DNA of 64,000 bases from positions 2,560,001-2,624,000 of the forward strand of contig OY843592.1 of assembly GCA_963692865.2 (NCBI GenBank), given 5' to 3'. Source of the stretch: a bacterium. Lineage in GTDB: Bacteria; UBA8248. The notes below the pieces were generated by a model. That model was not told where the DNA came from, did not search any database, and saw only the letters and a list, made by a program, of their open reading frames with translations. Shown here in pieces: positions 4,480-34,166 of the stretch. Both the position numbers and the translations under genes were made by a program. Position 1 is the stretch's first letter; each line of letters opens with the position of its first letter.

Positions 4480-5919
4480 TCATTGACGCATTTTTCTTTT
4501 GCCGGCTGGAGGGATGCGAAGTTCTTTGCGGTATTTCGTTACCGTCCGCCTCGCTATCGCCACTTCGTCTCGCTTGAGCCTATCCATGATTTGCTGGTCA
4601 GTGAGCGGTTTTCCGGGGTTTTCCTGTTCCACCATTTTCTTTATGGTTTCCTTTACGGCTACCGAAGAGGCGCTCTTCCCCGCCTCCGATTCTAATCCGC
4701 TGTGGAAAAAATACTTGAAACTCAAAACACCCTGCGGCGTATCCATATACTTGCCCGTCGTAACACGACTCACGGTCGATTCGTGCATCCCGATATCTTG
4801 TGCTATGTCTCTCAAAACCAAAGGCTTTAAGCGACTCACGCCGTGGTCCAGGAAATCCTTTTGGAAACGCACCAGGCTTTGGCAAACCTTCAGAATCGTC
4901 TTTTTTCTTTGCTCTATGCTTTTAACGAACCAGACGGCCGCCCTCAGCTTTTCCTCCAGATATTTCCGCGTATCCGGAGAGGTTCCCGTCTTGTCGGCTG
5001 CCATGGCCGCATACAGAGAATTCACGCGCAGTAACGGAAGTCCATCGTCATTGAGCGTTACCTCATATTCATCTCCCCTTCTGGCAACGCTTACGTCCGG
5101 GGCGACTACCTCCACTCTTTGCTCTGAAAATCGCAACCCGGGGCGAGGGTCGAGGCTTCGGATGATGTGGATAGCTTGAATGATCTCGTCCACATCGACG
5201 CCGTTGGCCTTGGCGAGTTTCACATATTGCCGCTCGCCTATCGTCTCAATGTCTTCGAACAGCAAGACTCGCGCCAATTCCACGAAACGGCTGTTCCCAT
5301 TCACCGACAGATCAAAATTCTTCAATTGTATGATGAGACATTCCTGAAGCGTTCTCGAACCAACACCAGGAGGATTGAACCCTTGCACCAACGCCAATGC
5401 CCTGTCGGCCTCACGAGGCCCCAAGCCCACGCTGACCGCCAACTCCTCCGCATCAACCTCGAGATAGCCCTCATCATTCACATTCCAAATAATTTGCTCG
5501 GCGACCCTTGCTATCGGCTCGGGAACCACCGAAAGACCTAGTTGCCATTCCAAGTGTTCATGCAACGTGTCGGGTTGCGCCAATGTCTGTTCATGAGATA
5601 GGAAATCATCATCGGAGGGTAAGGGCGAAAAATCAAAATAATTGTCCTGCACAATGTTTTCCCAATCAATTTCGATTTCGCCTCTTTCATCATTGCGTCC
5701 CTCGGGAACATCGTCTCTCAATTCGGGCATCTCGCCATCGGCCACTTCTTTGACTTCATCCTGAATTTCTTCCAGCAAGGGATTGTCCAACATTTCCTGC
5801 TGAACGGCTTGCTGCATCTCGGCGCGGCTCAGAGGCAAAAGACCAATCGCCTGCCGCAGCATGGCGGTCATGACGAGACGCTGCTCCGACTTCGTTGCCA
5901 TCTTATGCTGCAAAACCAT
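4480..5919 (-). CDS. rpoN: RNA polymerase sigma-54 factor
   Basis: MHESTVSR HTH and RpoN box ARRTVTKYR; start trimmed to MVLQHK (AAGGA upstream). Confidence 0.97.
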   Translation of the reverse strand: MVLQHKMATKSEQRLVMTAMLRQAIGLLPLSRAEMQQAVQQEMLDNPLLEEIQDEVKEVADGEMPELRDDVPEGRNDERGEIEIDWENIVQDNYFDFSPLPSDDDFLSHEQTLAQPDTLHEHLEWQLGLSVVPEPIARVAEQIIWNVNDEGYLEVDAEELAVSVGLGPREADRALALVQGFNPPGVGSRTLQECLIIQLKNFDLSVNGNSRFVELARVLLFEDIETIGERQYVKLAKANGVDVDEIIQAIHIIRSLDPRPGLRFSEQRVEVVAPDVSVARRGDEYEVTLNDDGLPLLRVNSLYAAMAADKTGTSPDTRKYLEEKLRAAVWFVKSIEQRKKTILKVCQSLVRFQKDFLDHGVSRLKPLVLRDIAQDIGMHESTVSRVTTGKYMDTPQGVLSFKYFFHSGLESEAGKSASSVAVKETIKKMVEQENPGKPLTDQQIMDRLKRDEVAIARRTVTKYRKELRIPPAGKRKMRQ

Positions 5920-18109: not shown

Positions 18110-19306
18110 CTATTCGCCTTTCTGGCTCTCAGGAGATAGTTTTATCGCGTTTTTATTTTCCCTCTCTTGCTTTTCTTTTTTCGTTATCGCGGCCGGTTCA
18201 CTCCTAAAAAGATAATATACGCTGTCTTTGTAAGTGGCAAAGATCATCAAACCGATGAGCAGAACGGTGCCCACCTGCATGGCCAGCTCCCGGACTCTCA
18301 GACTGATAGGTTTGCCACGCAAGCCTTCAATGAGCAAGAAAAAAATATGTCCGCCATCGAGAACCGGAATCGGCAGCAAGTTCAAAATCGCCAGGTTGAC
18401 GCTAAGTAAAATCGTGAACATGACGAGGTAGCGGAATCCGCGCTGCGCCTGTTCCGCGGCCACCACGGAAATACGGATCGGACCACCGATGTCCGCAGGA
18501 ATAGTCTTCGTGAGCATCGAATACAGCGTAACGACCGTTAAGCTGGCAATGCGGTAGTTTTGATCGAACCCCTTCCCCAAAGACTCAAAGAAGCCAAAAC
18601 GCTCGGTGTAGGTGCCTTGGCCGATCCTGATGCCGATTCGGCCATAACCCAACTCTTTGCCCGTCGCGCTCTTTGATGTTGGAACGATGGATGTTTCAAA
18701 AGACTTGCGGCCGCGCTCCACCGCCAGCACAAGTTTTTGCCCGGCGCTTTTTTGCACGATTGCGACAAGCTCGGACCATTTTTGAATCCGCTTCCCATCA
18801 ATGGCCACGATATGATCGCCGGTCTGGAGGTTCGCCTTTTGCGCAGGCGTATCGGGCAAAACACCGCCGACCCACGTTCCGGGGACGGGGATACCTCCAA
18901 GATGCAGTCCCCAACTGAGGAGTATTGCCAAGGCGACATTAAACAAGGGTCCAGCCGAAATGACAGCCAATCGGTGGCTCACCGGCCGCAAATAGAATGA
19001 TTTCTCCGGCTCATCCGGTTCTTTGGGAACATCAGGATCATCAGGTCGTGCTTCCGGGTCTTCTCCCAGGAGCTTTACATAACCGCCCAAGGGGATCAGA
19101 GACACGCGATATTCGGTCTCTCCCCGCTGAAAACCCCAGATGCGGCGACCGAAGCCCAAAGAAAACGTGGAAACGCCGATTTTGAGCCATTTCGCAACGA
19201 GATGGTGGCCCAACTCGTGGATGAAAATGAGCAGCCCCAGAACCAGCACGGCCCAGAAAATCGTCTGCCCGAAACCCATCACCCAGTTGATGATTTGCAT
19301 CGCCAT
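18110..19306 (-). CDS. rseP: RIP metalloprotease RseP
   Basis: HELGH, PLGGYVK, AGP, PDZ domain, NLLPIPVLDGG. Confidence 0.96.
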   Translation of the reverse strand: MAMQIINWVMGFGQTIFWAVLVLGLLIFIHELGHHLVAKWLKIGVSTFSLGFGRRIWGFQRGETEYRVSLIPLGGYVKLLGEDPEARPDDPDVPKEPDEPEKSFYLRPVSHRLAVISAGPLFNVALAILLSWGLHLGGIPVPGTWVGGVLPDTPAQKANLQTGDHIVAIDGKRIQKWSELVAIVQKSAGQKLVLAVERGRKSFETSIVPTSKSATGKELGYGRIGIRIGQGTYTERFGFFESLGKGFDQNYRIASLTVVTLYSMLTKTIPADIGGPIRISVVAAEQAQRGFRYLVMFTILLSVNLAILNLLPIPVLDGGHIFFLLIEGLRGKPISLRVRELAMQVGTVLLIGLMIFATYKDSVYYLFRSEPAAITKKEKQERENKNAIKLSPESQKGE

Positions 19307-19324
19307 TCTCTAATGAATCCTTAT

Positions 19325-20053
19325 TTATTTCCGGCCGCTGGGGGCCGGCATTTGCAGAACTTCGACATTCGGCGGCACGACGAACTGAAATTTCTCTTCC
19401 GTGATTCTGACGTTTTCTTTGACATTTGAAAACCGCAAACGGCTCTTGTTGCCGATAAGATCGATATACGCCAAAGTGAGGATCATGAAATTTTCAGGCT
19501 CCACCTCTACCCACATTCGCCGAAACGAAGCGACCTCGGACTTCGGCTCCAAGCGAATGCGATGGGGTTGACCGGCCTTCCAGATTCCTCCACTTCGTCT
19601 GGCAATTCCAATCTCTTCCACGGTTACATGAAAATTCTTCCTCAAATTCCCCTTGCCTTCCAAAAACAACAAAGGGGTAGTCCCAAATCCAGCACTCCCG
19701 GTTTTGGAAACCATCACCTGTCTGAAGCGAGCCGTGTAGAGCCAAAACATGTGACCATCAGAGACCAGAACCTGCTTTTCAGGTTTGGCATACTCCATGC
19801 GCAATTTGCCGGGCTTTTTCCACAAGAGACTCCCGCTCGACGTCGTCGTCCGACCCAAGGACCTTAATTCATTTTTTTGCTCGAAAGAAGCTTGCAAAGA
19901 TAAAAGGGTCTCATATTTCTCCTGAAGCGCCGTGATTATCTTCTCGACTTCTGGATTCGATTCTTCCGCTAGAGACACGCCGTGAACGAAAACTTGTACA
20001 AATGCAGAAAACAAAAAAACCAATACCGAAATCCAGAAACTCAATTTGCGCAA
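19325..20053 (-). CDS. lolA: Outer membrane lipoprotein carrier LolA
   Basis: Signal-like segment, ASFEQ, KKPGKLRMEY, VSDG, FQFVVP; start uncertain (TTG 20053 chosen). Confidence 0.88.
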   Translation of the reverse strand: MRKLSFWISVLVFLFSAFVQVFVHGVSLAEESNPEVEKIITALQEKYETLLSLQASFEQKNELRSLGRTTTSSGSLLWKKPGKLRMEYAKPEKQVLVSDGHMFWLYTARFRQVMVSKTGSAGFGTTPLLFLEGKGNLRKNFHVTVEEIGIARRSGGIWKAGQPHRIRLEPKSEVASFRRMWVEVEPENFMILTLAYIDLIGNKSRLRFSNVKENVRITEEKFQFVVPPNVEVLQMPAPSGRK

Positions 20054-20078
20054 AATTCTCTTAATCCTATGTGAATGA

Positions 20079-20732
20079 CTATTCGAAGACCGGCGAAATG
20101 AAGCCCCTGCTTTCCATAAGAGCATCACCTGAGTATTTCACGACGCCACCAATGCAGTGAACGCTCCCCTCGGCGATGAGCCGCACCGCCAGCGGATATA
20201 TAAGGTGCTCATAAACGAGAATTCTCTTTGAGAGGGTTTCTTCATCATCACCTGGCAACACCGGCACGGCAGCTTGTAAAATAATAGGCCCCGTATCCAC
20301 TCCCTCGTCTACAAAGTGAACCGTGCAGCCTGTGACTCTCACGCCACCATCCAAGGCTTTTTTCTGCGCGTGAAGACCAGGAAAACTCGGCAGAAGCGAG
20401 GGATGAATGTTGATGATTCTTCCTGAAAAACGGCTCACAAACTCCGGAGGCAAAATGCGCATAAAACCAGCGCAACAGACGAGTTCGATTCCACAGCTTT
20501 CAAGCTCGTCGCCCATCTTCAGGTAAAAACCATCCTCTTCGGATGCCAGGTATCTGTGTCGTATTCCAGCCATTGAGGCGCGTTCGAGTGCATACGCCTT
20601 TTTTTTATCGCTCAACACCAACACAACTTCCGCCGGAAAATCCGCGTTCTCCCCGGCATCAATGAGGGCTTGCAGATTCGATCCACGCCCCGATGCCAAA
20701 ACGCCCACACGTAATCGTGCTCTTGGATACAC
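20079..20732 (-). CDS. purN: Phosphoribosylglycinamide formyltransferase
   Basis: SGRGSN, AGFMRIL, NIHPSLLP, GCTVH, DTGPII. Confidence 0.97.
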   Translation of the reverse strand: MYPRARLRVGVLASGRGSNLQALIDAGENADFPAEVVLVLSDKKKAYALERASMAGIRHRYLASEEDGFYLKMGDELESCGIELVCCAGFMRILPPEFVSRFSGRIINIHPSLLPSFPGLHAQKKALDGGVRVTGCTVHFVDEGVDTGPIILQAAVPVLPGDDEETLSKRILVYEHLIYPLAVRLIAEGSVHCIGGVVKYSGDALMESRGFISPVFE

Positions 20733-21787
20733 TAGAATATGCCCTCAATGGCGACGGAGCGGCCAGCCTTTGGTTTTTTGACGACTTCGCCGACAACCAT
20801 GGCTTGTTCGCCTGCGTTTTTCAAACATTCGAGCAAAGGTTCCGTTCGCTCCGCCCTCGCGAGGAAGACAAACCCCAAGCCCATATTAAAAGTACGATAC
20901 ATCTCCGCGCTTTCAACCGGGCCGAGCTCTTGAATCAATGGGAATATCTCCGGCGTCTCCCATTTTTCAGGATAAAATTTGGCTTGCAGAGCCCCCGGAA
21001 TCACACGTCCCACGTTTCCCGGTATCCCGCCTCCCGTGATGTGCGCGAGACCGCTTACCCCCTCTTTTCCCCGAACGGAATTAGCCCCTGTGGCGTAAAT
21101 CCGAGTTGGCTCCAACAAAACATCTTCAACGGGAACACCGAGTCTTATCGACGCCATATCTCGTTTTTCCTTTGAATCAAATATCTTTCTCACCATGGAA
21201 AATCCGTTGCTATGAATTCCTGAAGAAGGTAGTGCGAGTATGATGTCTCCCGCTTTCACTGGGATTGCATTCTCCAATTCATTGCGTTCAACCACTCCCA
21301 CGACGAATCCAGCGAGATCATACACGCCCGGCTTATACATATCGGGCATCTCGGCCGTCTCGCCGCCAATCAGGGCGCACCCGGCTTCCCGGCAACCTCG
21401 AGCGATCCCGGACAGGACTGCCTTCAAGACGCTTTGGTCAATCTTTCCCGTCGCGATGTAGTCAAGGAAAAAAAGCGGCTCTGCTCCTGTGGTCAAGATG
21501 TCATTGACGCACATGGCCAGCAGGTCAATCCCGACTGAATCATGCCGCTCGAACTCCTGGGCCAAGAGCAATTTCGTGCCGACGCCGTCGGTACCTGAAA
21601 CGAGTACGGGGTCGTCATATCCTTCCCCCAGGCGAAACAGGCCTGCAAAATCCGCCGTCCCCTTCAGGATACGGCTACTTTGGTTATCGTGGGTAGACTT
21701 TACAGTTTGGGCGATAGACTGAACGAACCGCTCTCCCAAATCCACATCCACGCCTGTGTCACGGTATGTCAGACGATGATCTTTCAA
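20732..21787 (-). CDS. purM: AIR synthetase
   Basis: TDGVGTK, MCVND, GGETAEMP, HSNG, HITGGG, TFNMG. Confidence 0.97.
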   Translation of the reverse strand: MKDHRLTYRDTGVDVDLGERFVQSIAQTVKSTHDNQSSRILKGTADFAGLFRLGEGYDDPVLVSGTDGVGTKLLLAQEFERHDSVGIDLLAMCVNDILTTGAEPLFFLDYIATGKIDQSVLKAVLSGIARGCREAGCALIGGETAEMPDMYKPGVYDLAGFVVGVVERNELENAIPVKAGDIILALPSSGIHSNGFSMVRKIFDSKEKRDMASIRLGVPVEDVLLEPTRIYATGANSVRGKEGVSGLAHITGGGIPGNVGRVIPGALQAKFYPEKWETPEIFPLIQELGPVESAEMYRTFNMGLGFVFLARAERTEPLLECLKNAGEQAMVVGEVVKKPKAGRSVAIEGIF

Positions 21788-21838
21788 AAGTGGTGTTCCA
21801 TGATTTCGCAGGCGGAGTCGTTCAGAATGAACTCAAAA

Positions 21839-23971
21839 TCACCCATGGGCTTCCATCAATTTTTTGACCAATGCGACATTATGTCGATGACCACTCCTCT
21901 CAGCGGTCACTCTCCCTCGAATAGGACGACCGATTAAATACAGATCTCCTATCACGTCAAGAATTTTATGCCGAACGAACTCATTGGGAAATCGCAATTG
22001 GGTATTCACGACACGCGTCTTGTCTACCAGAATCACGTTATCCCAACGGCCACCCTCGGCCAAGCCCATTTTCTCGAGCGATTCCAATTCAGAGACAAAA
22101 CCAAATGTACGGGCCGGTGCGATTTCTTCTTGAAAACCCAAAGCATTCTTGTGTTCATAAAGATAGGCTTGCTTCCCAATCGGCTTGGGATAATCAATGA
22201 GATATGAAACCGAAAAAGAATCCGCAGGCTCTATGCGGATATAACCCTTCTCGTCGCCCGGCTCACCTACTTCGTAAACCTTATCAACCCACAAGTCTTC
22301 GCGTTTTTCTTTTTGATCCTCAATACCCGCTTCTTCAAGCAAGCGACAAAACTCGAGCGCCGATCCATCCATGACGGGCACTTCCTCGCTTATTTTAATG
22401 AGTATATTGCTTATCTTGTATGCGTGCAGCGCGCTCATGAGGTGCTCTATCGTTCGAGCCGTCACCGCTCCATTGCGCAAGTTCGTCGCATGGTTGGTGC
22501 CATCCACGAAATCAGCGTTCGCCCTCACGGTATCGGGGCTCGTCAGGTTGCCGAACTGAATCCCGCTCCCCGGCGGCAAGGGGTCAATGATCAATCCGGT
22601 TTTCAACCCGGAATGAAGCCCCCGGCCATACAACACGACGCTCTTCGAAATACTTCTTTGATTTGTTTTCCCGAGTGGCGACGACGGCGGCGATGCTGGC
22701 TCTATCTTGTATGCTCGAATCTTTCGCCTTAAGGCGGGCACCTTCATGCCCACCCCCCGGGCGGTTTTGCCGATGTCCCAACCGTGCTCCTCCAGGTGGA
22801 AGGAAAGATATTGTCTCTCCCACTGGGTTCTGGCCGCATTAAAATTCGAAGATGCGTCGTTCGTCGATTCGTCCGCCTCGAAATCAGAAACTTCGCGGAT
22901 CGCATGCGGCAAGTGGCCGATGCGAATCTCCGAGCCTTGCGATGTATGTGCCGCGGTGGTCACCGCGCTTTTCAGTTCGGCGATATTGCCCGGCCAATCG
23001 TAGTCTTCCAGAAGCGCGATGACATCTTCGGAGAATTCCTTCTCGTCCCCGCCAAATTCAGCGCATTCATCCAAGAATCTGTTGGCCAAAGGCAAGATGT
23101 CCTCTTTCCGCTCACGCAGAGGGGGCAAATGTATTACATCAGCGCCTATTTTTGTGGACAAAGCTCGCACGTAGGCCTTGTCTTTCGAGGTTCCCATATG
23201 ATCAACGGATGCCATCAGGCGCATCGAGCCCTTTGTATGCGCCAAGAATCGAGCGAGAAATTCCTGACCCTCCACTATGGGCAACTGCTCCAACCCGTCA
23301 AGATATAGCGTCCCCTGAAAGGTAGAGGGCGCCAGCCGATCCAGCGCCTCTTCCCATTCGTTTTTCCCCGATACCGGAAACAGCGAACGGCAATGAACAG
23401 GCCTAAGGTCTTCTTCTTTTCCAGCGCCGTTCTTGTGAATCACCTTTGCGATAAAACGTTTGCCGGTTCCTCTTTCACCCGCAATCAGCAAGGGGCCGAT
23501 ATCTTCCGCCGCATTCCTGACAGCTCTTCGAACCCTTTTAATGCTCTTGCTGGCGCCGTCAAGCATCACGTCGACGATATCATTCGCACTGAGTTCTTTG
23601 GCCCCTCGCGCTTGAACGGCGGCGTCGACTATGCGCAAAACGGTATCAATGGACAGGGGTTTTTCAATAAAATTGAAGGCGCCTAACTTTGTTGCGGCCA
23701 CTGCGGTTTCAATGTTGCCGTGGCCCGACATCAAGACGACCTCGATATCCGCGTTGGACTCTTTCACTGCCTGCAAAGTCTTGATCCCGTCAATGCCCGG
23801 CATCCAAACATCAACCAAAACCACATCCGGAGCTTCGGTCCGAACCAACTGAAGGGCAGTTTCTCCGGAATCGGCCTGTTCTACGCGATACCCCTCATCG
23901 CGCAAGACATCCTCCAGGCTTGCGAGTATTTCGCGCTCATCATCGACGATGAGAACATGTCCCTTATCCAA
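21839..23971 (-). CDS. lpxC: Fusion: NtrX-like response regulator (REC, degenerate AAA+, HTH) plus UDP-3-O-acyl-GlcNAc deacetylase LpxC
   Basis: N-terminal REC (VDDE, DVWMPGIDG, SGHG, EKP), GERGTGK, WPGNIAEL and Fis-like HTH. From about 22660: QRSI..GRGLHSG, TIEHLMSAL, EVPVMDGSA, APARTFGF, RHKILDVIGD, SGH. Confidence 0.93.
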   Translation of the reverse strand: MDKGHVLIVDDEREILASLEDVLRDEGYRVEQADSGETALQLVRTEAPDVVLVDVWMPGIDGIKTLQAVKESNADIEVVLMSGHGNIETAVAATKLGAFNFIEKPLSIDTVLRIVDAAVQARGAKELSANDIVDVMLDGASKSIKRVRRAVRNAAEDIGPLLIAGERGTGKRFIAKVIHKNGAGKEEDLRPVHCRSLFPVSGKNEWEEALDRLAPSTFQGTLYLDGLEQLPIVEGQEFLARFLAHTKGSMRLMASVDHMGTSKDKAYVRALSTKIGADVIHLPPLRERKEDILPLANRFLDECAEFGGDEKEFSEDVIALLEDYDWPGNIAELKSAVTTAAHTSQGSEIRIGHLPHAIREVSDFEADESTNDASSNFNAARTQWERQYLSFHLEEHGWDIGKTARGVGMKVPALRRKIRAYKIEPASPPSSPLGKTNQRSISKSVVLYGRGLHSGLKTGLIIDPLPPGSGIQFGNLTSPDTVRANADFVDGTNHATNLRNGAVTARTIEHLMSALHAYKISNILIKISEEVPVMDGSALEFCRLLEEAGIEDQKEKREDLWVDKVYEVGEPGDEKGYIRIEPADSFSVSYLIDYPKPIGKQAYLYEHKNALGFQEEIAPARTFGFVSELESLEKMGLAEGGRWDNVILVDKTRVVNTQLRFPNEFVRHKILDVIGDLYLIGRPIRGRVTAERSGHRHNVALVKKLMEAHG

Positions 23972-26228
23972 TGGAAGCCGCCCTTTGCTTTTCAGGCGTT
24001 ATGTCCACAGCAGGCGTCAGTGGCAACGTAACGCGAAAAACGGAACCCGCCGGATGGTTGTCCCGCACGCTAATCGTTCCATTGTGATCGGCCACAATGC
24101 GGTGGCATATAGCCAAACCCAAGCCGGAGCCTCTATCTTTCGTGGAAAAATATGGCGAGAATATATGGCCTTTCATATTTTCCGATATCCCCTGCCCCTG
24201 GTCGACAACTTCAACAACTATCATGTTTCTGTCCTTATCACTCCATGCCTGCAAATCTACCCTGCCCTCGACCTCGTGGGATTCGAATGCGTTTTCCAGC
24301 AAATTGATGAACACGCGTTGCAACTGCTCGGAGTCCGCCATGACAGATGCGTTCCCGACATCGATATGAATGGAAAATTTCACATTCCCCTTCCTGCCGC
24401 GATATAAATTCGCGACATCCTCGATGAGGGGAACAAACCCGCAAAGTCTTAATCTCGGCTCCGGCATTCGCGCAAAGCGGCTGAATTCATTCACCATTTC
24501 AATCAGACTCGTCACCTGATTGATAATGGTATCCGTACAAGATTCAAATACTTCTACGAAGTCATAGGCTTCGCTTTCAAATTTTCTTTTCATTCTCTCG
24601 ACGGAGAGCTGGATCGGGGTAAGCGGATTTTTGATCTCATGCGCAATGCCACGAGCCACTTCCTGCCACGCGGCCACTTTTTGGGCCCGTATCAGGGCCG
24701 TCATGTCATCAAACACAATGACGGCTCCGATTCTGCCGCCATCCGCGCTATTGAGCAAAGTCAAGCTGGCGCGCAACGTCAACACCCGGCCATCAATCAT
24801 GATCTCTACCTGCTCCGAAGCGCTTTGATGTTTTTGGCCCCTCATGGAACGCATCAACTGGCGAACAGGTTCAAGATGCGCACTTTCGAAAACCTCGCTG
24901 AACATTCGTCCCACGGCATGCTGAGGTTCGATTCCCAACAATTCCCCAGCCGCTTTATTGAGGGTAGTAACACGCCCTCGGCGATTGATTGATATCACAC
25001 CGGCTGCGATATTTTCGAGCATCGCTTCCATATATCGGCGCCTGCTGTCGATTTCCAAGTTGGAGCGCCGCAGGATTTCAGAGGATTCTTCGATTTTCTC
25101 CTTATTTGCCAACAATTCCTCCGTCATGCCGTTGAATGCGTTGACCAAAAGCCCCACTTCGCCATCCGCTTGCGCATCTACGCGATGTTCGAGGTCGCCG
25201 CCCGACACCGCTCTTGTGGCTTGCGCTAATTTTTCGATGGGAACCGTGATCCCGCGAGCGAGGTAGAAGCCAAACCAGATGGCGGCAAACAGAATGAGCA
25301 AGGTGACCACGAGAAAAGTGATAATGTAGTTCGCTTTGATTGGATTCTTGGATTGCTCCAACTCTTTATAATTCACGAAAGAATCCGATATGCTCCTTAT
25401 CTTCTCAACAAGCCTATCCGACAGATATTTGGATATAACAACAAATCCCACCACTTTTTTTTGAACCTTCAAAGGCGCCACGCCATAGATGACGTCGCCT
25501 TTTTCCCAATTTTCCACACTTGATCGCGACTCCCCGTCAATTACCTGATCCACGTATCCCACCAATGGCGAGAACGTTGTGGCCCGCTCCAACCCCGGAC
25601 GCCTGAGCGACATGATCTCCTTCCGCTCTTTATCGTAGAGTTGGATAAAATCGACCCCCAAGCTCTTTCTCTCAGCCGCCAGCGTTTTTTCAATCGCCTT
25701 GTGGTTTTCCATGATGTCGGGGTGCGTCTTCTCCAACACAGACGCAAGACGACTCGCGCTGAACAGCGCGTTTCGCTCCACTTCGCGGTAATACGTTTGA
25801 GCTACTTCGAACGAGCCCTTGAGCGCGCTCTCCACATTCATGTTGAACAAGGCGTTGAAACTCTGGTTAATCAAGCCGCTGGCCACTATAAAAAGAGCCA
25901 TTACGGGAATGAGCGCAAACCCGACAAAAGCCAACACGAGTTTTAGTTGCAATCGTGAGCGACCGGCGCCCGTTCTCCCTTCGTAGTAAAGACGCACCAG
26001 ATTCTTCGCTATCAAGAGAATAACCACCAGGAGCAGAATGATACTCAGATTCACGAGCGCAAATACGACGACGTTGTTGAGCAGAGGGACTCCCGGCTCG
26101 AGTTCTTTGAAATAAATCCAAGCCGTGAACGAAAGGGTCGCAATTACGATCGAAGCGATGAAGAGGCGCAGAAGCGTTCTTCGCCGGCGCGAGGAGATTT
26201 CTTGATTGTTCAGTCGTTTTGAATACAC
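23964..26228 (-). CDS. ntrY: NtrY-type PAS/HAMP sensor histidine kinase
   Basis: Several TMs, periplasmic domain, HAMP, PAS, H-box AWQEVARGIAHEIKNPLTPIQL, NLLENA, DQGQG, GSGLGL. Confidence 0.9.
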   Translation of the reverse strand: MYSKRLNNQEISSRRRRTLLRLFIASIVIATLSFTAWIYFKELEPGVPLLNNVVVFALVNLSIILLLVVILLIAKNLVRLYYEGRTGAGRSRLQLKLVLAFVGFALIPVMALFIVASGLINQSFNALFNMNVESALKGSFEVAQTYYREVERNALFSASRLASVLEKTHPDIMENHKAIEKTLAAERKSLGVDFIQLYDKERKEIMSLRRPGLERATTFSPLVGYVDQVIDGESRSSVENWEKGDVIYGVAPLKVQKKVVGFVVISKYLSDRLVEKIRSISDSFVNYKELEQSKNPIKANYIITFLVVTLLILFAAIWFGFYLARGITVPIEKLAQATRAVSGGDLEHRVDAQADGEVGLLVNAFNGMTEELLANKEKIEESSEILRRSNLEIDSRRRYMEAMLENIAAGVISINRRGRVTTLNKAAGELLGIEPQHAVGRMFSEVFESAHLEPVRQLMRSMRGQKHQSASEQVEIMIDGRVLTLRASLTLLNSADGGRIGAVIVFDDMTALIRAQKVAAWQEVARGIAHEIKNPLTPIQLSVERMKRKFESEAYDFVEVFESCTDTIINQVTSLIEMVNEFSRFARMPEPRLRLCGFVPLIEDVANLYRGRKGNVKFSIHIDVGNASVMADSEQLQRVFINLLENAFESHEVEGRVDLQAWSDKDRNMIVVEVVDQGQGISENMKGHIFSPYFSTKDRGSGLGLAICHRIVADHNGTISVRDNHPAGSVFRVTLPLTPAVDITPEKQRAASIG

Positions 26229-30248: not shown

Positions 30249-30728
30249 TCAAGAATTCTCCGGCTTGCGTCTAGACAGCCATCCCCCGTCAAGCAGACAG
30301 GCGATTCTTTGTTCTTCCTCATTCATGCGCGCGGATTCCGCCTTCGTGTAATGATCATACCCCTTGAGGTGTAAAAGGCCATGCACGAGCAGCCGCTCCG
30401 CCAAGACTCCATAATCAACCGCCTCGGCCTCCGCCTGGCGGAGCACCTCATCCACGCAGATGACCAATTCTCCCCCAAAAGCCTTCCCCTCCCCTTGCTC
30501 GTCCACAGGCGGAAAAGAATCCGCCGGCGGAAAAGCCAACACATCCGTTGTTTCGTCTTCCTCCCGATATCGGGAATTCAACGCGCGCATCTGCTCGTCT
30601 CGAATGAATACGACGCTGAACCAGTCATCTTCGGACCGGAGAGCTTTCCGTATGACGTCCAAATGTTGCCTCAGCGCTTTGTGATCCAGCGCGAACAGCT
30701 TTTGATCGTTTTTGATGAGGACTTCCAT
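30249..30728 (-). CDS. ybeY: rRNA maturation endoribonuclease YbeY
   Basis: LNSRYR, TDVLAFP, HGLLHLKGYDH; start MEVLIKN with AAGGAG SD. Confidence 0.95.
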   Translation of the reverse strand: MEVLIKNDQKLFALDHKALRQHLDVIRKALRSEDDWFSVVFIRDEQMRALNSRYREEDETTDVLAFPPADSFPPVDEQGEGKAFGGELVICVDEVLRQAEAEAVDYGVLAERLLVHGLLHLKGYDHYTKAESARMNEEEQRIACLLDGGWLSRRKPENS

Positions 30729-33111
30729 TCGCAGCTCCTTTCTTCGGAGCGCCTTCTTGTCCCGGATAATGAATCCGGTGGTGATGAATGCCAACCAAAA
30801 CGCGCATGAAGGCATCCTGAATGTTGCTCAAATCCCTGAGTGTGAGGCTGCAATTGTCCAATTGCCCCTCCACGAAAGCGCTCTGGACGATTCTGTCCAC
30901 CAAGGCGCTCAGGCGGCCGAGAGAATGGTCCGACAGCGAATGCGACGATGCCTCCACCATATCAGCCAGCATCAGGATGCCCGCTTCTCTCGTCTGGGGT
31001 CTTGGCCCCGGATAGCGAAAAAACTCTTCTGTCACGCCATCCCCATTTTGATCCTTCGCCTTCTCGTAAAAAAACCGAATCAAGGATGTGCCATGATGTT
31101 GCTGAATCAAATCGATGATCTCTTTGGGCAGTTGATGGCTTTTGGCAAGTTCCACTCCCTCTTTCACATGGCTGATCAGGATGAGCGCGCTCATGTTGGG
31201 CTTGAGTCTGTCGTGCCGGTTTTCGCGCCCCTGGTTTTCGATGAAATACTCCGGTTTCATCATCTTGCCGATATCGTGGAAATACGCGCCCACGCGCGTT
31301 AGAAGCGGATTCGCGCCGACCGCCTCGGACGCCTCCTCCGCCAGGTTGCCTACGAGAAGGCTGTGGTGGTAGGTGCCTGGCGCGCCGACAACCATCTTTC
31401 TCAGTAGCGGGTGATTCTGGTCGGCCAACTCCAGAAGGCGCATGTCGGTCGTGAGTTTGAAAATCGACTCGAGCAGGGGCATGGCGCCGGCTACGATGAT
31501 GACGTTGGAAAGGCCGCCGAGCAATGCGATGGGAACATCCGTCCATTGCATAATTGCGGCGCGGAAACCCTCCTGCACGTTGAAACCCAGAGCGAGCGCA
31601 GCGCCCAGCAGACCCAGGATGAGCGCCACGATAAGCACGGAAGTCCTGCGACGATATTCTTTCCATCGAATGGCCGACAGCACGCCGCCGGCCAGGGCGA
31701 CAAGGCTGAAGTTCATATGATTCGGCAAAATCAGTCCGGTCAGAACGGCGGAGAAAATCGCCATCAACACCGCGGATGAGCGTCCCAGTAAAACGGCCGC
31801 GAGCAGAGAGGCGGAACAAAATGGAATGACGTAGTAGAACGAGTGTAGTGGAATCCCCCGAAAAGTTTCATGCAACACTTCGGAGAAAAGAATGCCCATT
31901 TTCAGCAAAACAGCCTGGCTTAAAAGCAGTATCACGAAAAGTGTTACGTTTTTTTGCGATGACAAAAAACTCACGTCGTATTTCTGCACGCAAATCCATG
32001 CCAGAACGAGCAAAATGAAAATCACCAAAGCCGTTCCGGTAAAGTTGCCGATCACATGGCTTTGCCGGTAGATTTTCTCCAGGCTTTTGAGTTTAATGAT
32101 TTGTCCCTCGCTCAACCGTTCTCCCTCGCGAACAATCATCTCCCCTTGCTTGAGAACCTCGGAGACAGGAGGAACGGCGGCCGCGACCTTTTCCCGGCTC
32201 TCGAGCGTCGCCCTGTTATTGAAAGTCAACGTCGGCTGAACCATCTTCAATACTTGGGAGACCAGCAAATCACCAATGCGCCGAGGAATTCCGAGGGGCA
32301 CCTTTCGGGCTTCTCGCTTGAGTAATTCATCGACCTGTCTGAGTTCCAGGGGGTTCATGGACGGGCTGAGTGAAACGCGATTTCCCGTTCTGATGTCGCG
32401 CGCCGTAATCCCCTTCTCCGCATGGGTGGCGTACAATCTTTTATCGCTCACTATTTGGTGGGAATATGCCACCCGCAACAGCTTGGCGATAACCTCTCGA
32501 ATCCAGTTTGCGAATCTCTCATCTCTCAGCCATGCCGCCAGTTCCTTTGGAACCGCGCCACCCACCAACCCATGGAACGCGCTCTCCGCTTTGATGAAGG
32601 CAGTGGTAGCGTACATTTCCCGGTAAGCTTCCGACTCGGATAAAAGCGTCCGGCTCTTCTGCTTGGCCAGTTTTTTCAATTGCTCGGCTTTTACCCTCTC
32701 GATCTCTTTGTCCACCGTTCGTTGAATGGATTCAAAAGCGCCATTCAGCCTGGCAAGGACGACCTGCGAAAGTTGGGTATCGATATCGTAACGCGGCAGG
32801 ACTTTTTCTCTGGCTGCTTGGCGTTTCGCATTTGTTGCGATGGGGTCGACCACGCGCATATCCTGAGGGGCTTTGATATCCCTGGGGACGATATCGCCCA
32901 CCTCAAAGGAAACGCGAGGCGCCGAAAGATCCGTTGTGAGCAGAAATGAGAGGACGACGGCGAGCGTTCCACCCAAAATCCATGGATAGGTACTTGTCTT
33001 GGTAAACGCCAAAACAAAATTCGCGATCGGGCGTCCCACCGACGCCAGCAGACGTAAAAAAATATTTTGGGGTTTCCCGGCAGATTTTCCGACGCCGGCT
33101 CGATGGATCAC
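30625..33111 (-). CDS. 7TM-HD (HDIG) phosphohydrolase, PgpH-like putative c-di-AMP phosphodiesterase
   Basis: Large extracytoplasmic domain, about 7 TMs, APGTYHHS, HDIGK, FIENQ, HHGT, YPGPRP; phoH-HD-ybeY synteny. Confidence 0.9.
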   Translation of the reverse strand: MIHRAGVGKSAGKPQNIFLRLLASVGRPIANFVLAFTKTSTYPWILGGTLAVVLSFLLTTDLSAPRVSFEVGDIVPRDIKAPQDMRVVDPIATNAKRQAAREKVLPRYDIDTQLSQVVLARLNGAFESIQRTVDKEIERVKAEQLKKLAKQKSRTLLSESEAYREMYATTAFIKAESAFHGLVGGAVPKELAAWLRDERFANWIREVIAKLLRVAYSHQIVSDKRLYATHAEKGITARDIRTGNRVSLSPSMNPLELRQVDELLKREARKVPLGIPRRIGDLLVSQVLKMVQPTLTFNNRATLESREKVAAAVPPVSEVLKQGEMIVREGERLSEGQIIKLKSLEKIYRQSHVIGNFTGTALVIFILLVLAWICVQKYDVSFLSSQKNVTLFVILLLSQAVLLKMGILFSEVLHETFRGIPLHSFYYVIPFCSASLLAAVLLGRSSAVLMAIFSAVLTGLILPNHMNFSLVALAGGVLSAIRWKEYRRRTSVLIVALILGLLGAALALGFNVQEGFRAAIMQWTDVPIALLGGLSNVIIVAGAMPLLESIFKLTTDMRLLELADQNHPLLRKMVVGAPGTYHHSLLVGNLAEEASEAVGANPLLTRVGAYFHDIGKMMKPEYFIENQGRENRHDRLKPNMSALILISHVKEGVELAKSHQLPKEIIDLIQQHHGTSLIRFFYEKAKDQNGDGVTEEFFRYPGPRPQTREAGILMLADMVEASSHSLSDHSLGRLSALVDRIVQSAFVEGQLDNCSLTLRDLSNIQDAFMRVLVGIHHHRIHYPGQEGAPKKGAANGSPHQKRSKAVRAGSQSAEATFGRHTESSPVRR

Positions 33112-33159
33112 GCGATCAACCTCCAGAATCCTTCAATGATGAAGGGATTGTGGACGTAT

Positions 33160-33194
33160 CGGCTATATGAGCACGCCCGCGGCTATATAAGCAC
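33160..33194. repeat. 15-bp imperfect direct repeat with a 20-bp period
   Basis: cggctatatgagcac (33160-33174) and cggctatataagcac (33180-33194), 14/15 identical. Confidence 0.8.
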
Positions 33195-33209
33195 TCTTAT
33201 AGAGTTCGC

Positions 33210-34166
33210 TTATAGACTGTGGGCCTCGTATGCAGAAACGATTTTTCTCACCAAGTGCGTGCGAACCACATCTCGCTCACTGAAATAGACGAAACAAACT
33301 TCTTCTAAATCTCCCAGGACGTCTTGCGCATGAACCATCCCGCACCCGGAGGTTTCGGGCAAATCGATTTGGGTGATGTCCCCCGTTACAACCGCCTTGC
33401 TCCGGGTACCGAGACGGGTGAGGAACATTTTCATCTGCTCGGGCGTCGTGTTCTGCGCCTCGTCCAATATAATAAAAGAATCATTCAACGAGCGACCCCT
33501 CATATATGCGAGCGGCGCTATCTCTATCTCACCTCTTTGAATGAAACGCTCTACCCGCTCAAACTCCACCATATCGTTCAGAGCGTCAAACAGCGGCCTG
33601 AGATACGGATTCACCTTCTCCTGCAAATCACCGGGCAAAAATCCGAGTTTCTCGCCGGCTTCCACCACGGGCCTCGTCAACACGATGCGAGCGTATGCCC
33701 TCTCCAGTAATCCGGAAACGGCCATGGCCATGGCCAGATAAGTTTTCCCCGTTCCGGCTGGTCCGATCCCGAATGTTACTCCCTTTTCTCGAATCGCCTT
33801 GATATATTCGCTTTGAACCGGGCTCTTGGGAACGACGTATCGCTTCTTCGATGAAACCGAGATTCGATTCGTCACCAAAGAACGAAGCGTAACGTCTTGT
33901 TCCATCGCAACGGTCTGGGCCAGTGTTCTGACGTTCAAAGGGTCGAACCGAAACCCCTCGTCCACGCATTCCGTCAACTCGTCAAGGAACAATCCGGCCT
34001 TCTCGGCGGCGTCGGGCGGGCCTTCCACCACGAACCCCTCTGATGCAATTCTGATTTTTACGTCAAACGCCCTCTCCACGGCCTTGAGGGATTCATCCCG
34101 ATTACCAATAATATGAACCAACCTATCGGGCCCGGCCAGCGGGCTCGCAGACATCCTTGTCGCCAA
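33210..34166 (-). CDS. phoH: PhoH-family ATPase
   Basis: GPAGTGKT, GFLPGDL, APLAYMRGR, DEAQN, GDITQIDL. Confidence 0.95.
   Translation of the reverse strand: MATRMSASPLAGPDRLVHIIGNRDESLKAVERAFDVKIRIASEGFVVEGPPDAAEKAGLFLDELTECVDEGFRFDPLNVRTLAQTVAMEQDVTLRSLVTNRISVSSKKRYVVPKSPVQSEYIKAIREKGVTFGIGPAGTGKTYLAMAMAVSGLLERAYARIVLTRPVVEAGEKLGFLPGDLQEKVNPYLRPLFDALNDMVEFERVERFIQRGEIEIAPLAYMRGRSLNDSFIILDEAQNTTPEQMKMFLTRLGTRSKAVVTGDITQIDLPETSGCGMVHAQDVLGDLEEVCFVYFSERDVVRTHLVRKIVSAYEAHSL

Follow-up and report, generated by a model that had tools for sequence, protein, structure and literature searches.

The window analysed here is the whole stretch of 64,000 nucleotides taken from a bacterial contig (GTDB lineage Bacteria; UBA8248; GenBank assembly GCA_963692865.2, contig OY843592.1, positions 2,560,001 to 2,624,000 of the forward strand). 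It carries a gene for a 710-residue protein in which a response regulator is joined in frame to LpxC, a major antibiotic target and the enzyme of the flux-controlling, essential and committed step in making lipid A. A gene for an NtrY-like histidine kinase lies directly upstream and is itself preceded by a gene for a DUF4390 (PlrP-like) protein (Table 1).

Architecture of the Fused Gene

The single open reading frame comprises a receiver (REC), an AAA+-like domain of the sigma54 type with its lid, a Fis-type helix-turn-helix (HTH), a short Pro/Ser linker and an LpxC domain. An earlier note on this DNA, made from the letters alone, had read the same order of parts without giving the strand, which is minus; the Pfam matches bear out this reading, and the linker lies exactly where the note had placed it. 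The TTG start, followed by the same N-terminus (LDKGHV), is common to all 10 of the 10 genus-level genes recovered. The Asp-Asp-Asp-Ser/Thr-Lys quintet of the receiver is complete. The Pfam Sigma54_activat model matches residues 139-196 only; within the AAA+ core the Walker A motif is present (GERGTGK), the Walker B motif reads LYLDGLE and has no Glu, and the GAFTGA loop is absent.

The linker runs directly into the conserved LpxC N-terminal QR(T/S), and the LpxC domain ends four residues before the stop codon, so that a C-terminal tail is absent. The protein passed the NCBIfam lpxC model TIGR00325 (239.5 bits against a cut-off of 187.25), and residues 437-706 align to many LpxC chains in the PDB (E ~1e-47). 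The EH, ARTF, HKxxD...D and SGH motifs correspond to E78/H79, T191, H238/K239/D242/D246 and H265 of E. coli LpxC. The enzyme half is thus an LpxC member by every sequence criterion applied, and it is predicted to have deacetylase activity, to which its place as the only LpxC of the genome, the presence of LpxB and LpxK and a dN/dS of 0.048 (see below) point indirectly.

Table 1. Features of the fused gene and of its surroundings, in window positions
Feature	Position	Strand	Details
Whole fused gene	21839..23971	minus	710 aa; TTG start; stop at 21839-21841
Receiver (REC), residues 6-114	23630..23956	minus	Pfam PF00072 Response_reg, 105 bits
REC functional residues			acidic pocket D10/D11; phospho-acceptor D54 (codon 23810-23812); Ser/Thr82; K104
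Degenerate sigma54-type AAA+ core, residues 139-285	23117..23557	minus	Sigma54_activ_2, 42 bits
AAA+ lid, residues 286-367	22871..23116	minus	AAA_lid_14 PF25601, 74 bits; PPLRERKEDI, WPGNIAEL
Fis-type HTH, residues 383-421	22709..22825	minus	HTH_8 PF02954, 22.9 bits (cut-off 22)
Pro/Ser linker PASPPSSPLGKT, residues 425-436	22664..22699	minus	12 residues, predicted flexible
LpxC domain, residues 438-706	21854..22660	minus	PF03331, model positions 1-267/268, 278.9 bits
LpxC catalytic motifs			E509-H510, T622, H668-K669-D672-D676, H695
NtrY-like histidine kinase, 754 aa	23964..26228	minus	NtrY_N, HAMP, PAS, HisKA, HATPase
DUF4390 (PlrP-like) protein, 238 aa	26232..26948	minus	PF14334, 93 bits; precedes kinase
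lolA and rseP	18110..20128	minus	rseP: M50 protease with PDZ; after purM-purN, downstream of the fusion
LapA-domain protein, 222 aa	29654..30322	minus	LapA domain at residues 113-174; directly upstream of mutS
7TM-HD (PgpH-like) membrane hydrolase and PhoH-like ATPase	30625..34166	minus	upstream of the LapA-domain gene
rpoN	~4492..4965	minus	Sigma54_DBD, 204 bits, in a 543-aa open frame; ~17 kb from the fusion

Single contigs, assembled from the runs of three studies, cover positions 21700-24100 with 0 gaps. One of these is identical to the window (X3), and the other two carry 152 (X5) and 157 (X6) substitutions; all span the junction without insertions or deletions, as the check on reads proposed in the earlier note had asked. 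The fused gene is genuine and not an artefact, and it probably encodes a bifunctional protein. The claim that it had not arisen from two genes by loss of a stop codon agrees with these contigs and with the extended frames found throughout the phylum (see below).

The Fused Gene as the Sole LpxC

The fused gene is the only LpxC match in the window's genome (G000; 4.15 Mb, 97% complete), which answers a question that the earlier note had raised, and lpxB and lpxK are present in the same genome. Across the phylum, LpxC was matched in 50 of 51 species genomes, and the genome without a match is 93% complete. All 45 complete-domain matches lie in extended frames, 35 of them of 646-755 aa, nine of 432-538 aa and one of 356 aa; no stand-alone LpxC frame of ~300 aa was found among these 45. 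Three of the nine short frames were inspected, and each encodes REC-LpxC with the kinase upstream. The 356-aa frame (G011) was considered as a near-stand-alone LpxC and rejected, as the contig end cuts the frame and AAA/HTH sequence is present. A same-genus genome of 8 Mb in 70 contigs has its LpxC domain split over two frames (G028:C19:33661-34399; model positions 1-203 and 199-244), which reflects either a frameshift or an assembly error.

Elsewhere in the window's genome, lpxB, a 243-aa open reading frame, a 423-aa open reading frame and lpxK are co-directional (locus L097, G000:C1:1684786-1689004). A 609-aa frame around LpxK was considered as a second fusion and rejected, being a stop-to-stop frame that overlaps the upstream gene.

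Of 10 genomes inspected from other phyla, 9 have no lpxC besides the fused gene. The exception is a Nitrospirota-labelled genome with an additional stand-alone LpxC (G059:C8:110046-110852, 318-aa frame, 354 bits), in which the fused copy might be a paralogue that serves a different function. In the most divergent REC-LpxC proteins (L054 and L059, from Pseudomonadota- and Nitrospirota-labelled metagenome-assembled genomes), the LpxC domain contains 10 inserted residues. When residues 380-710 served as the query, over 100 proteins of 700-745 aa that share this long architecture were retrieved, as well as a form of ~445 aa that has only REC and LpxC. The fused proteins are thus numerous in public databases, where they stand under plain LpxC or NtrX names.

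Conservation and Selection

Across 66 long and 102 short forms, the receiver residues D10, D11, D54 and K104 do not vary, and position 82 is Ser or Thr. The same invariance holds for E509, H510, T622, H668, K669, D672, D676 and H695 of LpxC. The motifs that the earlier note had listed as kept (DVWMP, EH, ARTF, HKILD and SGH) are all present, and are invariant or nearly so in the sets of 94, 66 and 102 homologues. In the 66 long forms the lid residues R288, D291, W326 and N329 are invariant, and W384, L393, A404 and L414 of the HTH are conserved.

The motifs for sigma54 activation have fared differently. GAFTGA is found in 0/94 fused long forms, compared to 39/63 stand-alone regulators, and a Walker B motif of the form hhhDEh is retained in 5/94, whereas DE is present in 58/63 stand-alone regulators. 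Because GAFTGA is absent and the Walker B Glu mostly lost, the fused regulator is, by its motifs, incapable of acting as a sigma54 activator.

The ratio of nonsynonymous to synonymous substitution rates (dN/dS) was estimated from 11 genus-level genes in 55 pairs. The values were 0.042 for REC, 0.048 for LpxC, 0.100 for the HTH, 0.147 for the lid and 0.207 for the AAA+ core; all parts are under purifying selection, with the middle module 2-5 times less constrained than the two ends. Since selection still acts on the HTH and on the nucleotide-binding site, the long form is probably also an NtrX-like DNA-binding protein and/or a nucleotide binder in this genus.

Short REC-LpxC Forms

REC-LpxC proteins that have no AAA+ or HTH domain occur inside the phylum and in metagenome-assembled genomes labelled Deltaproteobacteria, Acidobacteriota, Bdellovibrionales, Pseudomonadota and Nitrospirota. 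Among relatives of the LpxC domain with 152-485 aa, the closest 120 are made up of 103 REC+LpxC proteins, seven lid/HTH+LpxC fragments and 10 LpxC-only proteins, and most of these 10 are on contigs no longer than 3 kb. In a tree of the shared REC and LpxC parts (66 long and 21 short forms), the short forms are nested among the long ones, and the long/short label changes at least six times, at least four of these changes being forced by well-supported branches. One short form within the window's own clade (P0044) aligns to REC (1-130), then to the last HTH helices, and then to LpxC; it is a long form with an internal deletion, given the HTH remnant that it retains. The tree and this remnant indicate that the AAA+/HTH module has been deleted repeatedly. 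The kinase gene is still adjacent in many relatives, though not in all (see below). In the Nitrospinota-type short forms (P0054-P0066), the REC-LpxC linkers (alignment columns ~130-200) span 40-70 residues, are predicted to be disordered, and are of low complexity, rich in Lys, Arg, Ser and Pro, with runs of Lys/Arg.

The Adjacent Kinase and the Gene Neighbourhood

The stop codon of the kinase gene overlaps the start of the fused gene by 8 nt, and the two genes are translationally coupled through this overlap. The NtrY_N match of the kinase scored 28.2 bits against a cut-off of 23.2; in NCBIfam no family was above its cut-off for the kinase, and there was no match for the DUF4390 or the LapA-domain protein. 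By analogy, the DUF4390 protein is a putative periplasmic third component of an NtrYX-type system, a role proposed for DUF4390 (PlrP) in a subset of NtrYX systems (PMC13001219). No second NtrY-like kinase or NtrX-like regulator was found in the genome, which has only two other NtrC-like AAA+ regulators.

Long forms (L013 and L015) likewise have an NtrY-like kinase gene directly upstream, as do short forms from within the phylum (G024, G046 and G040) and from outside it (L021-L023, with kinases of 34-36% identity over ~700 residues). In two of these outside loci, of a Deltaproteobacteria type with kinase and REC-LpxC, a second kinase and a full NtrC-type regulator lie ~4 kb downstream on the other strand (L022, 10796-13242, minus; L023, 11665-13083, minus); this second set may represent the transcriptional arm, retained apart from the fusion.

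Around the fusion in the window there is a co-directional array that includes the LapA-domain gene, mutS, purM, purN, lolA, rseP, ispG and proS. The genes purN and lolA likewise follow the fusion in distant Nitrospinota-labelled loci (L018 and L020). The window also contains rpoN and, upstream of the LapA-domain gene, the genes for a membrane hydrolase and an ATPase (Table 1). The search for a sigma54 promoter of the window's operon gave only four weak sites (12-13 of 15), all within coding sequence.

Stand-Alone Relatives and Origin of the Fusion

The comparison set consisted of 63 stand-alone regulator loci, which were the top matches of a scan that started from two REC motifs. These regulators are mostly ordinary sigma54 activators, and their receivers are 47-59% identical to the fused receiver. 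A long NtrY-like kinase match lies beside 52 of the 63. A separate lpxC is located just upstream on the same strand in 23 of the 63 loci, the order being lpxC-(DUF4390)-ntrY-like kinase-regulator, with DUF4390 in 18/63. In these clusters lpxC precedes the kinase gene and does not follow the regulator gene, so that losing a stop codon would not have sufficed for the fusion and a rearrangement was required.

Upstream of lpxC, 16/23 loci have a sigma54-type -24/-12 site with a score of 12 or more out of 15, compared to 102/920 control windows taken from the same loci, and 7/23 have one with a score of 14 or more, compared to 12/920. All 16 of the lpxC-adjacent loci that keep GAFTGA score at least 12, whereas all seven that have lost it score 11 or less. 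In phylogenetic trees, 46 fused and 22 stand-alone sequences of the LpxC half split on a single branch (Shimodaira-Hasegawa-like approximate likelihood ratio test (SH-aLRT) 99), as do 25 fused and 61 stand-alone sequences of the regulator half (SH-aLRT 100). A single origin of the fusion is compatible with both trees and is not demonstrated by them.

The findings in the stand-alone clusters fit several published reports. In D. vulgaris, lpxC is the one target of the regulator DVU2934, which binds no promoter other than that of lpxC, and in S. fumaroxidans lpxC abuts the operon orthologous to that of DVU2934 (PMC3333781). Leptospira lpxC has a predicted sigma54 promoter, and the NtrC-like Leptospira protein EbpB (LIC_11549) adjoins a kinase (PMC12655853) whose NCBIfam family is the best match of the window's kinase, below the cut-off. 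In R. sphaeroides, loss of NtrYX raised lpxC mRNA 8.8-fold and also raised lipopolysaccharide (LPS), and lpxC there carries no NtrX site (PMC7240162; PMC12444477).

Predicted Structure

In the structure prediction proposed in the earlier note, the single domains came out with confidence, but their arrangement relative to one another was not usable. In AlphaFold monomers of both the long and the short form, the domains sit on disordered linkers with no fixed interface. The low-confidence segments of the long form are residues 129-134, 362-375 and 427-432, with a predicted local distance difference test (pLDDT) below 50 at 427-432; the short form has a pLDDT of ~30 over a stretch of 38 residues (132-169). 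A complex prediction of LpxC (433-710) with REC (1-125) gave an ipSAE of 0.01, was run without controls, and is evidence for nothing. The disordered-linker pattern of the models is compatible with tethered gating but proves nothing.

Discussion

We consider it slightly more probable than its negation that, in this protein, a former transcriptional regulator of lpxC has been covalently joined to its target, and that the kinase now acts on LpxC post-translationally. The ancestor would have been a sigma54-dependent activator encoded beside lpxC, its target; after the fusion, sigma54 activation would have been lost, and the AAA+ and HTH parts would have become dispensable and been deleted in many lineages. 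The NtrY-like kinase, with its DUF4390/PlrP-like periplasmic partner, would phosphorylate Asp54, and a rearrangement or dimerisation of the receiver would then act post-translationally on the output of the LpxC domain tethered to it. The arrangement would resemble CheB and PleD, with an N-terminal receiver on a flexible linker gating a C-terminal enzyme, and lipid A flux would follow an envelope signal without proteolysis of the FtsH/LapB type.

The receiver-enzyme pair would be the functional core, because evolution removed everything that lay between the two and never separated them. By analogy, receiver-gated catalysis or assembly would be the most likely version of this control, with effects on stability or localisation as the main rival. 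If the ancestral regulatory sign has been kept, phosphorylation might tentatively be expected to raise LpxC output. Control of the enzyme by the receiver was one of the alternatives given in the earlier note, and is now favoured because many lineages deleted AAA+/HTH and kept REC-LpxC with the adjacent kinase; the other, in which LpxC couples precursor status to DNA binding, is weakened as a core function. That note was right on the architecture, but had overlooked the degeneracy of the AAA+ domain, the kinase directly upstream and the spread of the fusion throughout the phylum.

Several points weigh against the reading preferred here. That phosphorylation of D54 alters LpxC output is itself an inference. 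The kinase does not lie within 6 kb of the fusion in six loci (L017, L018, L020, L024, L025 and L059). The HTH and AAA+ domains are still under purifying selection in this genus, which has therefore not given up transcriptional function. The 63 stand-alone loci were not sampled at random, and the seven lpxC-adjacent ones that lack GAFTGA represent in effect one clade, so that the correlation between GAFTGA and the sigma54 promoter reflects few independent events. The trees are unrooted and come from quick searches with narrow sampling. DVU2934 and EbpB are likened to the stand-alone regulators by published description only, and not as established orthologs. The models give no defined arrangement of REC and LpxC; the predicted template modelling score (pTM) was 0.45 for the long and 0.65 for the short form, and the latter value may be explained by the LpxC domain alone.

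The receiver may instead set the amount or the location of LpxC rather than its turnover number, either as a degron or a module for binding an adaptor, in both cases dependent on phosphorylation (as in RssB and CpdR), or as a tether to the membrane kinase. The fused LpxC does not have the C-terminal tail that, to judge from the title of work by Fuhrer in 2006, is reportedly needed for degradation by FtsH, and the linkers are long and disordered, both of which would suit such control. E. coli LpxC is itself under proteolysis, and Neisseria LpxC is controlled through membrane localisation by a LapB homologue (PMC12444477). That no LapB Zn-ribbon (PF18073) was matched in the window's genome points the same way, although this is a weak negative, as the model also matches Gram-positive control genomes. 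Against this alternative, no protease or adaptor gene is conserved beside the fusion. We regard this alternative as unlikely.

It is less probable still that the protein is primarily a trigger enzyme, that is, an NtrX-like DNA-binding regulator in which the LpxC domain would signal to the HTH whether substrate or product is bound, as in PutA and BirA, so that envelope gene expression would track lipid A precursor status. The purifying selection on the HTH (dN/dS 0.10) and the lid and the conserved HTH residues (W384, L393, A404 and L414) are consistent with this, as is the binding of DNA at lpxC by the ancestral class of regulator (PMC3333781). However, the HTH has repeatedly been deleted while REC-LpxC and the kinase persisted, the short forms make up 103 of the 120 nearest relatives, and the LpxC domain must be catalytic, as it is the sole LpxC. 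In the long forms, a trigger-enzyme role may exist alongside gating.

Of similarly low probability is a passive fusion, in which the joining secures only co-expression or stoichiometry and the receiver has no effect on the enzyme. Flexible linkers and the lack of a predicted fixed interface are what such a fusion would show, but it leaves unexplained why an intact phospho-acceptor receiver and its presumably cognate kinase were kept after other parts were deleted, and why REC is as constrained as LpxC. Nothing was found in favour of an artefact, whether a chimeric assembly, a frameshift or a pair of genes taken for one, and it is practically inconceivable, given the gap-free contigs of three studies, the same architecture in over 100 assemblies and in several phyla, the purifying selection on all domains, and a linker continuous with the conserved LpxC N-terminal QR(T/S).

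Returning to control of LpxC by its attached receiver, the observations can be read jointly as a third, undescribed mode of control, in which an NtrY-type envelope kinase acts on LpxC by direct phosphorelay through the attached receiver; we put the chance of this joint reading at a little under even. The protein concerned would be the sole LpxC of a whole phylum and of many lineages labelled Desulfobacterota, Acidobacteriota, Bdellovibrionota and Nitrospirota, and it would derive from a sigma54 activator of lpxC that was fused to the product of its target and then shed the transcription machinery. A 2025 review of lipid A regulation lists only proteolysis, partner proteins and transcription as means of LpxC control (PMC12444477), and the words 'fused', 'fusion', 'receiver' and 'response regulator' were not found in it. 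That the earlier note knew of no characterised example of this architecture agrees with a literature search, whose coverage stopped short of subscription journals, in which no published description was found.

A sole lpxC fused to a signal receiver suggests that a membrane kinase directly controls outer-membrane lipid output at the protein level. For bacteria other than E. coli and Pseudomonas, a receiver-LpxC protein as the only LpxC of entire lineages would point to a new regulatory logic that is testable with recombinant protein. The series from a separate lpxC with a sigma54 activator, through the full fusion with a decayed AAA+ domain, to the minimal REC-LpxC would be an unusually complete record of a regulator rewired from gene to protein control. 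If the reading is true, it would document a path from transcriptional to post-translational regulation and give a mechanistic reason for the ties of NtrYX to lpxC and the envelope in proteobacteria; the fusion would also be independent support, of the Rosetta-stone type, for the link between NtrYX and LPS synthesis.

Comparison with Known Systems

The regulator half resembles NtrX. Among solved structures covering all three regulator domains, residues 5-420 aligned best to Brucella NtrX (5m7n, E 2.6e-43), the best NCBIfam regulator match is NtrX, and the fused long forms have no GAFTGA. However, the score for the NtrX equivalog model NF051870 was 234.3 bits against a cut-off of 600, and the protein is thus NtrX-like but not an NtrX equivalog; it also carries a complete C-terminal LpxC and has lost the Walker B Glu. 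The kinase resembles NtrY in its NtrY_N and HAMP-PAS-HisKA-HATPase domains, and the DUF4390 gene upstream of it recalls PlrP-PlrS of Bordetella (PlrSR). NtrYX is already tied to lpxC expression and the envelope in alphaproteobacteria, and the known action of NtrX on lpxC is through transcription only, indirectly in R. sphaeroides.

The stand-alone sigma54 regulators beside lpxC share the type of kinase and the receiver, and lpxC is linked to the system in both cases. They differ in that their lpxC stands apart upstream, behind a -24/-12 promoter, and both GAFTGA and Walker B are retained in the regulator, whereas in the fused protein LpxC is joined at the C-terminus, both motifs are lost, and there is no convincing sigma54 site before the operon.

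The other known LpxC fusion is LpxC/FabZ, whose NCBIfam model NF009667 scores 211.6 bits on the LpxC part, below its cut-off of 465. Pfam gives no FabZ domain here, and the partner is N-terminal and regulatory rather than an enzyme of the pathway. The FtsH/LapB system of E. coli controls the same step, and both modes would be post-translational, as far as the control proposed here is concerned; in the fused protein, however, LpxC has no C-terminal tail, and the proposed input is phosphotransfer and not proteolysis.

Enzymatic output domains are already known among response regulators. The CheB methylesterase, the PleD and WspR cyclases and RpfG have an N-terminal receiver, a flexible linker and a C-terminal enzyme, as the fused protein does, but the output in the present case is not a signalling enzyme; it is the zinc amidase of an essential biosynthetic pathway.

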